Shown: positions 63,033 through 63,760 of the stretch, piece by piece | Position numbering within the stretch: the stretch's first letter is position 1 | Layout: each line of letters starts with the position of its first letter | Assembly: GCA_048621635.1 (NCBI GenBank) | Contig: JBMCWH010000003.1 | Location: 1 to 63,760 of the forward strand | Direction: 5' to 3' | From: Patescibacteria group bacterium | GTDB lineage: Bacteria > Patescibacteriota > WWE3 > JAUXAW01 > JAYEID01 | DNA: 63,760 nt | The notes under the pieces: generated by a model | The model's input: only the letters and a program-made list of their open reading frames with translations | The model's database searches: none | What the model was told of the DNA's origin: nothing | Position numbers and translations under genes: made by a program

Positions 63033-63760
63033 AATTAAGATAGCTACGGGTATATGATGGATGCCTTGGCACCTAAAAGCCGAAGAAGGACGTGGCATGC
63101 TGCGATAAGCCTCGGGAAGCCGCAAACAGGCGTTAACTCGGGGATTTCCGAATGGGGAAACCTATCTGTGTGTAAGCACAGATACCTCTGACTTGTCAGA
63201 GGTGGTAAGCCGGCGAAGTGAAGCATCTTAGTAGCCGGAGGAAAAGAAAACAAATCTCGTGCGGAGCACGAGAAATTCCCTTAGTAGCGGCGAGTGAAAA
63301 GGGAACAGCCCAAACCTTGTGCGTAGCACAAGGGCACTAATCAACGCGAATAGCAGTTCACTTTGTTCACACGCGAATAGACGCGAAGTAAGAATTAGCG
63401 TAGATTTGCGTGGTGAGCATTAGCGAGCTTCTGATTAGCGTAAATTCGTGTCCTCGCGCTGCGCGCGAGGTGTTGTAGGATCGGCATTAACAAAGTTAGA
63501 AAACTAGAGCTTAGAAGAAGTCCACTGGAAAGGGACGCCATAGAAAGTAATAGCCTTGTATTTGAAAAGCTCTGGACTTTGGCCGACTCCTGAGTACCAC
63601 GAGTCACGTGTAACCTTGTGGGAACCTGGGAAGACCACTTTCCAAGGCTAAATACTTTAGGTGACCGATAGTGAACAAGTACCGTGAGGGAAAGGTGAAA
63701 AGAACCCCGGTAAGGGGAGTGAAATAGAACCTGAAATCATATACTCACAATCTGAGAGAG
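63033..63760 (+). rRNA. rrl: 23S rRNA gene, 5' part (runs off the window)
   Basis: GATGGATGCCTTGGC, GATTTCCGAATGGGGAAACC, AGTAGCGGCGAGTGAA and GTACCGTGAGGGAAAGGTGAAAAGAACCCC. The 5' end is approximate. Confidence 0.9.
63315..63470 (+). repeat. ORF-less insertion element in 23S domain I (copy 2)
   Basis: Lies between GGGAACAGCCCAAA and TGTTGTAGGATCGG. It has the same terminal hairpins as the 16S copy (CCTTGTGC-gtag-CACAAGG ... CCTCGCGC-tgcg-CGCGAGG). Confidence 0.85.

Follow-up and report, generated by a model that had tools for sequence, protein, structure and literature searches.

A family of hairpin-capped, rod-forming insertions in rRNA and other structural RNA genes of the Candidate Phyla Radiation

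We analyzed a 63,760-nucleotide (nt) stretch of DNA from a Patescibacteria group bacterium (contig JBMCWH010000003.1, assembly GCA_048621635.1; hereafter, the window), at the end of which lie a 16S ribosomal RNA (rRNA) gene and the 5' part of a 23S rRNA gene. The spacer between them is occupied by tRNA-Ile(GAU) and tRNA-Ala(UGC), and the nearest relatives of the 16S gene and of mnmA upstream of it are metagenome-assembled genomes (MAGs) of Saccharibacteria / Patescibacteria, which identifies the window as a piece of a CPR (Saccharibacteria) genome. Each of the two rRNA genes is interrupted by a copy of one non-coding element, which we describe here together with its relatives in other genomes of the Candidate Phyla Radiation (CPR). 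The element is bounded by two conserved 19-nt ends and self-folds into a rod of ~60-75 bp, the base of which is a 19-bp duplex of these ends. Judged from the sequence, it is a transcribed part of the host RNA and always lies in the sense orientation. Its pairing has been kept by selection at the RNA level, and its interior is common to different sites of one genome and replaced at fixed sites between related genomes.

Alignment of the window rRNA genes to the Rfam covariance models of the bacterial small- and large-subunit (SSU and LSU) rRNAs left three blocks without a consensus counterpart: 158 nt within the hairpin of 16S helix 6 (SSU model 79-83), 139 nt within the 23S hairpin directly after AGCCCAAA (LSU model ~274-300), and 18 nt at LSU model ~228-232, which corresponds to a separate 19-nt hairpin. 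The 5' flank of the 23S copy matches E. coli 23S rRNA up to position 270 (BLAST), in agreement with the original prediction, made from the window sequence, that this insert lies in domain I near E. coli position 270. The same prediction held that the 16S and 23S inserts align end to end at about 90% identity. Global alignment of 60374-60550 with 63315-63470 gave 142 matches, 14 mismatches and one 21-nt gap (142/156, 91% identity), and the blocks flanking the gap have BLAST E-values of 5e-35 and 4e-11 with the low-complexity filter off. The single 21-nt difference had been attributed to an extra hairpin in the 16S copy, and the segment does fold as a side hairpin. The 23S insert is a genuine second copy of the 16S insert, and the homology of the two rules out independent expansion segments, as had been argued.

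A contig from an independent Logan assembly (SRR21542050; locus L001, such handles being used below for all loci) matches the window from mnmA through the 16S copy into the 16S gene at 9846 of 9847 positions. Misassembly of one locus is unlikely, because the two copies differ, each has its own rRNA flanks, L001 reproduces the 16S copy and the same pattern recurs in unrelated MAGs. A spurious open reading frame (ORF) spanning the 23S copy was looked up for a second assembly of this junction, and no record was found. No further copy was detected by BLAST with 7-nt words in the rest of the 63.7-kb window. The coordinates of the host genes, the two copies and their hairpins are given in Table 1.

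Table 1. Host genes, element copies and component hairpins in the window
Feature	Position	Strand	Basis and remarks
16S rRNA gene, host of copy 1	60305-61942	+	Rfam SSU_rRNA_bacteria, 1371 bits, model positions 1-1533
Element copy 1, 177 nt, tip of 16S helix 6	60374-60550	+	SSU alignment block, fold, L001, orthologue in L002
Copy 1, 5' terminal hairpin CCTTGTGC-ACA-GCACAAGG	60374-60392	+	Read from sequence; fits family pattern
Side hairpin, 21 nt, 16S copy only	60425-60445	+	Gap in 23S copy; CCCCGC-UCA-GCGGGG in minimum-energy fold
Copy 1, 3' terminal hairpin CCTCGCGC-TGT-GCGCGAGG	60532-60550	+	Loop TGT complementary to 5' loop ACA
23S rRNA gene, 5' part	63034-63760	+	Rfam LSU_rRNA_bacteria, 452 bits, model 1-579; 3' side cut by contig end
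Solo hairpin TCTCGTGC-GGA-GCACGAGA, 23S ~228/233	63255-63273	+	18-nt LSU insertion; -11.9 kcal/mol, z -4.3
Element copy 2, 156 nt, replaces hairpin tip after helix 14 (E. coli ~271-300)	63315-63470	+	LSU alignment, fold
Copy 2, 5' terminal hairpin CCTTGTGC-GTA-GCACAAGG	63315-63333	+	Read from sequence
Copy 2, 3' terminal hairpin CCTCGCGC-TGC-GCGCGAGG	63452-63470	+	Loop TGC pairs with GTA: G-C, U.G, A-U

All three hairpin types (5' end, 3' end and solo) have 8-bp stems and 3-nt loops, and in the window copies the two 19-nt end modules are inverted repeats of each other at 15 or 16 of 19 positions, the loops being part of the match. Both copies fold into a single imperfect hairpin rod (-96.2 kcal/mol for copy 1 and -81.6 kcal/mol for copy 2, z -8.5 in each case), and no shuffled sequence was as stable. 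Sixteen columns differ between the copies without breaking a base pair: in two pairs both partners have changed (one from A-U to G-C, one from G-C to A-U), and the other differing columns comprise three Watson-Crick/wobble switches, one repaired mismatch and eight unpaired positions. Since no differing column breaks a pair, both copies have been under selection to stay folded since their divergence. Like classical intervening sequences (IVSs), both are extra stem-loops at a helix tip relative to the consensus rRNA. Neither copy contains an ORF of note. A search of Rfam 15 at E<=10 with region 60340-60590 returned the SSU model itself and no family for the element. Introns of groups I and II and small self-cleaving ribozymes were rejected as candidates, with no Rfam match at the gathering threshold in the window or at E<=10 in 60340-60590.

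Hairpins of the terminal type occur five times in the window, every one of them within the rRNA genes. The fifth is the solo hairpin of the 23S gene, a variant of the 3'-end type. It had been predicted as a separate 19-nt hairpin with a 4-nt loop; its presence as an insertion relative to the LSU model stands, and its loop is 3 nt (GGA) rather than 4 nt. The same 23S site (~228) is filled by a full element in L056, L091 and L110. Helix 6 of the L056 16S gene is empty and its tip, CTCGACC-TTC-GGTCGAG, is of the same style as the solo hairpin. Such solo hairpins may be either relics of former elements or their landing pads.

The original prediction had called for a search for further copies in CPR genome bins. 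We scanned a collection of species-representative genomes with one strict ends-only pattern and one length window (CTTGTNCNNNGNACAAG, 115-145 nt, CTCGCNCNNNGNGCGAG), derived from the family ends 5' CCUUGUSC-NNN-GSACAAGG and 3' CCUCGCSC-NNN-GSGCGAGG. The pattern matches twice in the window, against 0.00 matches expected in shuffles, and it recovered 65 stretches in ~60 other bins, essentially all of them CPR-like, where by our own arithmetic ~0.1 would be expected by chance. After removal of regex artefacts, 88 elements from 61 bins were retained; this number under-counts short and long members and those with variant ends (type B ends in L056; CTCGTSC 3' hairpins), and elements from related genomes are not independent observations within it. 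In all 88 elements the 5' module comes first in the sense of the host RNA. Collections of phage, plasmid and viral contigs gave no match to the element.

Host labels include Woese-, Levy-, Chisholm-, Collier-, Shapiro-, Curtiss-, Blackburn-, Gottesman-, Harrison-, Zambryski-, Jorgensen- and Liptonbacteria, as well as Parcubacteria/Paceibacterota and Saccharibacteria. For 21 loci that are unclassified or carry a non-CPR label (Gammaproteobacteria, Rhodobacterales, Thermodesulfovibrionales, Pacearchaeota), we compared the rRNA with E. coli and with CPR references. Its identity to E. coli is ~66-75%, apart from one 61-nt match at 85%, and most of these loci are at least as close to the CPR references. 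We therefore rejected the non-CPR labels of the tested loci; for L071, L085, L116 and L123 neither similarity is clearly the greater. Label and rRNA disagree in L064, L071, L076, L077, L081, L085, L086, L092, L094, L101, L113, L115, L116, L126 and L127, which probably reflects mislabelling or mis-binning.

The elements occupy ~20 sites, which include the classical IVS sites in 23S helices 25, 45 and 9 (H25, H45, H9). Sites were placed by BLAST of the flanks to E. coli; mapping with MAFFT misplaced several inserts. Helix names combine these coordinates with the standard numbering. The most populated sites are H45 (15 copies and one uncertain), H25, H63 and 16S helix 6 (h6), with 12 copies each, followed by 23S ~270, the site of window copy 2, with 8 copies (the other seven in L056, L064, L067, L076, L077, L088 and L118). 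Five copies lie just 3' of the 16S gene, four in H98, and three each at 23S ~228 and in H68. Single copies were found in H9, at 23S ~640, ~1104, ~1590 and ~2130, in 16S helix 26 (h26), at 16S 140-240, in the spacer 5' of the 23S gene, in a group I intron and in unannotated DNA (L099). The distance between the L099 copy and a 5S gene is ~930 nt; the copy is on the opposite strand and upstream of both a promoter-like site and an ORF.

Three further copies reside in the RNA of ribonuclease (RNase) P, one in P12 (L102:1219-1372) and two in the P15-17 region (L124:2585-2733 and L122:4066-4227); these insertions drop two of the three host genes below the Rfam gathering score. The group I intron copy (L121:180-345) lies within a match to Rfam Intron_gpI (1-387). 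That copies also sit in spacers and an intron speaks against a working role of the element in the ribosome. A different insert, of a word-repeat type (AAAGTTCAAAGTTCAAAG...) and without the canonical ends, was observed in another 16S helix of the relative L059 (11728-11939, E. coli ~190-226).

The search pattern fixed most stem positions, and therefore only the free positions of the ends are informative about pairing. Full complementarity between the two terminal loops was found in 86 of the 88 elements, where shuffles averaged 28.6 and peaked at 44, and it holds for 21 of 23 distinct loop combinations. In the middle of the loops the pair is U.G in 62 of the 88 elements and A.C in none. In the 66 distinct end sequences, a model in which the two ends form one extended duplex leaves 88% of cells paired, with double changes at seven pairs. 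Its covariation score is 0.370; shuffles score 0.100, none of 500 reaching the observed value, and slid registers score 0.073 at most. Among the free positions, 1:38 is paired in 58/66 sequences and 19:20 in 66/66, each with six pair types. Under the competing model of two local hairpins, positions 1:19 and 20:38 are unpaired in about a third of the sequences. The extended fold is the more stable of the two in 87 of 88 elements, by 6 kcal/mol on average.

In the basal 19-bp duplex, U.G occupies positions 4 and 6, and usually also 10, while 14 and 16 are A.C; these positions are symmetric about the centre of the duplex. The sense RNA is more stable than the antisense RNA in 88/88 elements (mean difference 12 kcal/mol), and the interiors are strand-asymmetric, with an A/C-rich 5' arm and a G/U-rich 3' arm. 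Taken together, the pairing, the covariation and the greater stability of the sense strand indicate selection on the transcript and not on the DNA only. The bases just outside the ends are mutually complementary, again with six pair types, and continue the host helix, to which they therefore belong. Target-site duplications were not found at the flanks of the elements, where the bases are complementary rather than repeated.

Near-identical interiors at different sites of one genome were found in SRP093762 (23S ~270 and H45, identity 1.00), L064 (~270 and H25, 0.97), the genome H43 (H45 and H63, 0.97), L110 (~228 and H25, 0.92) and L056 (~228 and ~270, 0.89). L097 and Chisholmbacteria bin 139 carry related copies in both the 16S and the 23S gene, as does the window. 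These near-identical pairs alone carry the signal; the median interior identity, compared within and between genomes, says nothing, given the background of ~0.6 that low-complexity interiors produce. The 23S cores of L056 and L108, both Saccharibacteria, are 88-90% identical and their H68 elements are orthologous, whereas their H45 and H98 elements are of different types, and the H98 element of L108 matches the H45 element of L056 at 85%. Thus, the sites are stable and their contents are exchanged. The RNase P RNA copies indicate that unlinked genes are also reached. The proposal that a mobile or gene-converting element of stable-RNA genes lies behind the inserts is supported by the same ends at ~20 sites and by interiors that are shared between sites and exchanged between genomes.

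The interior type of the window copies was found in two Saccharibacteria MAGs. L002 has an orthologous copy in 16S h6, with mnmA upstream and 78% identity, and L108 has the same interior type in 23S H45, 93% identical to the L002 copy and ~80% to the window's. This type therefore occupies 16S h6 (window, L002), 23S ~270 (window) and 23S H45 (L108). Exact 20- and 22-mers of it were found in genomes only in L002 and L108, and in none of the JGI metagenomes. An exact 22-mer (AAGGGCACTAATCAACGCGAAT) in a Verrucomicrobiales contig (L003:2792-2813) was rejected as a further relative, since nothing more is shared and one such match is at chance level for a 596-Gb collection.

At the place of 60425-60445, a side hairpin of different sequence is present in the L002 and L108 homologues too; the 23S copy of the window has therefore lost it. 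Where the window copies differ, the 23S copy often retains the state of L002 and L108. Other states are derived relative to L002 and L108 and common to both window copies, which suggests that the 23S copy descends from the window lineage's own element after the split from L002; alternatively, the two copies were homogenised by gene conversion.

Loci of relatives were reached via protein clusters; a locus search based on MnmA gave distant taxa only. In the relatives L056 and L061, h6 is empty and has a short hairpin only. L056 is a complete rRNA operon of a relative (MnmA 59% identical) with six elements in its 23S gene. Two of them stand at the two 23S sites of the window (that of the 19-nt hairpin and ~270) and have the window's ends and quite different interiors. 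L056 also has a ~843-nt insert in 16S near E. coli position 1494 (13095-13937) and a ~780-nt insert in 23S that is absent from L108 (18437-19216). Its Rfam LSU match ends at 18550, and sequence of 23S domain VI runs on to ~19600.

A third copy of the element probably lies just beyond the end of the window contig, where it would have broken the assembly. The contig stops at 63748-63760 (...CAATCTGAGAGAG / ...CTGAGAGAG), which coincides with the start point of H25 elements in the 23S genes of other CPR genomes; there the element begins with CTTGTCC after ...acagtgagag (L073) or with CCTTGT after ...cagacagag (L075, L116). The interior of the window's 23S copy could conceivably be partly chimeric with this unseen H25 copy.

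We interpret the window pair as members of a CPR-wide family of non-coding, hairpin-capped palindromic insertions that form an IVS-like rod, are probably excised by RNase III and spread at the DNA level, and we place about half of our confidence in this reading. At the DNA level, one element would be copied onto another, or onto a solo hairpin, to give a new copy; the shared ends would anchor the process, either gene conversion or template switching during replication. Template switching has been proposed to create and maintain hairpins in RNA sequences (PMC8794818). In the window lineage the 16S copy would be older and the source of the 23S copy, in which the side hairpin was lost.

An endonuclease that acts on double-stranded RNA as a dimer, RNase III being the likeliest candidate, would cut the precursor RNA at the pseudo-symmetric basal duplex. 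Like a classical IVS, the rod would thereby be excised, and the resulting rRNA pieces would stay joined through the helix beneath it. The element would need no function of its own beyond being harmless, and its restriction to structural RNA genes may reflect either an insertion preference or survival only where an extra rod does no harm.

Several observations weigh against this interpretation. To our knowledge, RNase III substrates share no specific sequence of the kind seen at the ends, the conservation of which would better fit a sequence-specific DNA or RNA enzyme; the invariance of the ends is, in turn, partly an artefact of a search pattern that fixed most stem positions. Each end alone folds as a perfect local hairpin, and the extended duplex has two unexplained A.C mismatches (14:25 and 16:23). 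Excision from RNase P RNA would split an essential ribozyme, and since these copies are outside the rRNA operon, more than gene conversion within the operon is needed. One copy (L099:157-313), the only one outside a recognised structural RNA, is in possibly intergenic DNA. Finally, no RNase III gene was seen among the ten window proteins that were scanned.

The best surviving alternative is that the rod is a retained expansion segment, which stays on the surface of the mature ribosome or RNase P RNA and is either neutral or has a surface function. The sites coincide with universally variable helices (h6, h26, H9, H25, H45, H63, H98), the pairing is under purifying selection, and an extension of P12 or P15-17, if kept, leaves the RNase P RNA in one piece; Lui et al. 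2021 report 'large extensions of helices' in CPR RNase P RNAs (PMC8172020). However, the spacer and group I intron copies are discarded from the mature RNA anyway, and a near-perfect duplex of 60-75 bp is a natural substrate of RNase III. The orthology by site that characterizes expansion segments is not seen here: interiors are shared across helices, differ at the same helix in relatives and are swapped between sites instead of being inherited site by site. Moreover, CPR rRNA inserts are reported to be absent from transcripts (PMC11270868). We consider retention possible and clearly less probable than excision of an IVS-like rod.

Somewhat further down we rank a non-autonomous DNA transposon, either MITE-like (miniature inverted-repeat transposable element) or derived from insertion sequences (IS) of the IS200/IS605 type, whose hairpins an enzyme acting in trans would recognise on DNA that may be single-stranded. 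The RNA rod would then merely let insertions be tolerated, and the restriction to structural RNAs would result from selection in very compact genomes. The architecture of the element fits this view, with conserved 19-nt inverted repeats that are each a perfect palindrome and are common across phyla around interiors that vary. Copies in unlinked RNase P RNA genes and one in unannotated DNA, insertions at new sites (h6 is empty in relatives) and within-genome copies that are 97-100% identical, suggesting recent copying, point in the same direction.

On the other hand, target-site duplications are absent, the bases outside the ends being complementary and part of the host helix, and no copy was found in the window's 60 kb of coding DNA or in the viral contigs, phages and plasmids searched. 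The loci examined contain no long ORF-bearing version between such ends, and no transposase was identified in a search that was not thorough and did not cover whole genomes. The consistent left/right asymmetry of the element and its U.G pairs indicate constraints at the RNA level. On balance, a DNA transposon appears doubtful.

With a similarly low probability, a dedicated CPR enzyme recognises the pseudo-symmetric ends on DNA or RNA, excises the rod and drives its spread into hairpin tips. Such an enzyme would explain why the elements are strictly sense-oriented and confined to structural RNAs across the radiation. The elements would then constitute a previously unrecognised class of mobile elements specialised on structural RNAs (rRNA, RNase P RNA, introns), which we likewise hold to be unlikely. 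An artefact, in which one misassembled locus or low-complexity convergence of independent expansions produced both copies, is very improbable: although the contig terminates inside the 23S gene at a likely repeat and the wider family has low-complexity interiors, of which unrelated ones reach ~0.6 identity by lenient global alignment, the copies differ by 14 substitutions and an indel and have distinct flanks, the 16S copy was independently assembled, the window-type interior is not of low complexity and recurs at 78-93% identity in two other MAGs, and neither the BLAST E-value of 5e-35 nor the ends pattern (0.00 expected in window shuffles) is compatible with chance.

Among known systems, the family is closest to the bacterial rRNA IVSs, such as those of Salmonella 23S helices 25 and 45 and of Coxiella helix 45, which are extra, long stem-loops at the tips of surface helices. 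Most short IVSs likewise have no ORF, and the family occupies their classical sites H25, H45 and H9. IVSs are excised by RNase III without religation (PMC2672173; PMC4990558). The family differs from them in having the same 19-nt ends at ~20 sites in many phyla, including RNase P RNA and an intron, and the same interior at several sites of one genome; its own excision is predicted by analogy.

Small, non-coding, multi-copy elements with terminal inverted repeats or hairpins are also known as MITEs, REP/BIME (repetitive extragenic palindromes and bacterial interspersed mosaic elements) and IS200/IS605 palindromes. Unlike these, the family has no target-site duplications, no copies in the ordinary intergenic or coding DNA of the window and no identified transposase, and it is strictly sense-oriented with G.U pairing at the RNA level. 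The expansion segments of eukaryotes and Asgard archaea resemble it in being rod-like helical extensions of the same variable helices, but they are inherited site by site and retained in the ribosome, whereas members of the family are exchanged between sites and also occur in spacers and an intron. Rickettsia palindromic elements, mitochondrial double-hairpin elements and the GC clusters of mitochondrial rRNA are hairpin-forming selfish elements that are tolerated inside functional genes and whose copies spread within one genome, also in variable rRNA regions. They belong to other lineages, have other sequences and are also found in protein-coding or intergenic DNA.

Short inserts in CPR rRNA genes have been recorded before. 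According to Tsurumaki et al. 2024 (PMC11270868), 64 of 66 Saccharibacteria rRNA inserts are <=250 bp and contain neither an intron nor a homing endonuclease, the short non-intron inserts cluster at known IVS sites and are presumed to be of the RNase III type, and CPR rRNA inserts are removed from transcripts. Our family almost certainly corresponds to these short inserts and to those that the article cites from Brown et al. 2015. That catalogue, in the part consulted, is organized by length and position and does not report shared ends, homology across sites or copies in RNase P RNA. Our full-text literature searches likewise returned no description of shared ends, of cross-site or 16S/23S homology, or of a link to RNase P. 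The family is not categorically new, being IVS-like or MITE-like, and a prior description elsewhere is possible.

Inserts in rRNA genes are a hallmark of the CPR, which makes up a large share of bacterial diversity, and the short non-intron ones have been uncharacterised so far. Our results indicate that many of them form one family with fixed ends, an RNA rod, exchange of interiors and copies in RNase P RNA. The ends provide a sequence signature for finding or masking the elements, which helps 16S/23S surveys, primer design and assembly, where contigs break at elements, and they offer a concrete candidate processing site for RNase III. The family is also a tractable case of a selfish or neutral element inside the essential RNAs of minimal genomes, and it links two CPR oddities that were reported separately, the long rRNA genes and the extended RNase P helices.

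Several other features of the window were noted. The 16S gene lacks 47 consensus positions in the helix 17 region (SSU model 438-484, window ~60950); reductions of this kind have been reported for CPR rRNAs (PMC9297842). The gene is bracketed by a 25-nt inverted repeat (60275-60299 and 62111-62135, 96% complementary), which is the expected processing stem and does not contain the end motif of the element. Directly 3' of both tRNA-Ile and tRNA-Ala, the spacer has a structured module of ~125 nt (62321-62445 and 62756-62880), formed by two hairpins (z -3.6 and -4.9); the two modules are 76-88% identical in blocks. The spacer of L056 has an analogous duplicated module after both tRNAs, the copies of which are 95% identical to each other and unrelated in sequence to those of the window. 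The module may be a processing structure or a second element that is homogenised within the operon. Elsewhere in the window, ARAGORN predicted a tRNA-Ile with the anticodon UAU, which is uncommon in bacteria, at 33050-33126 and two tRNA genes with the anticodon CAU at 37887 and 38804.

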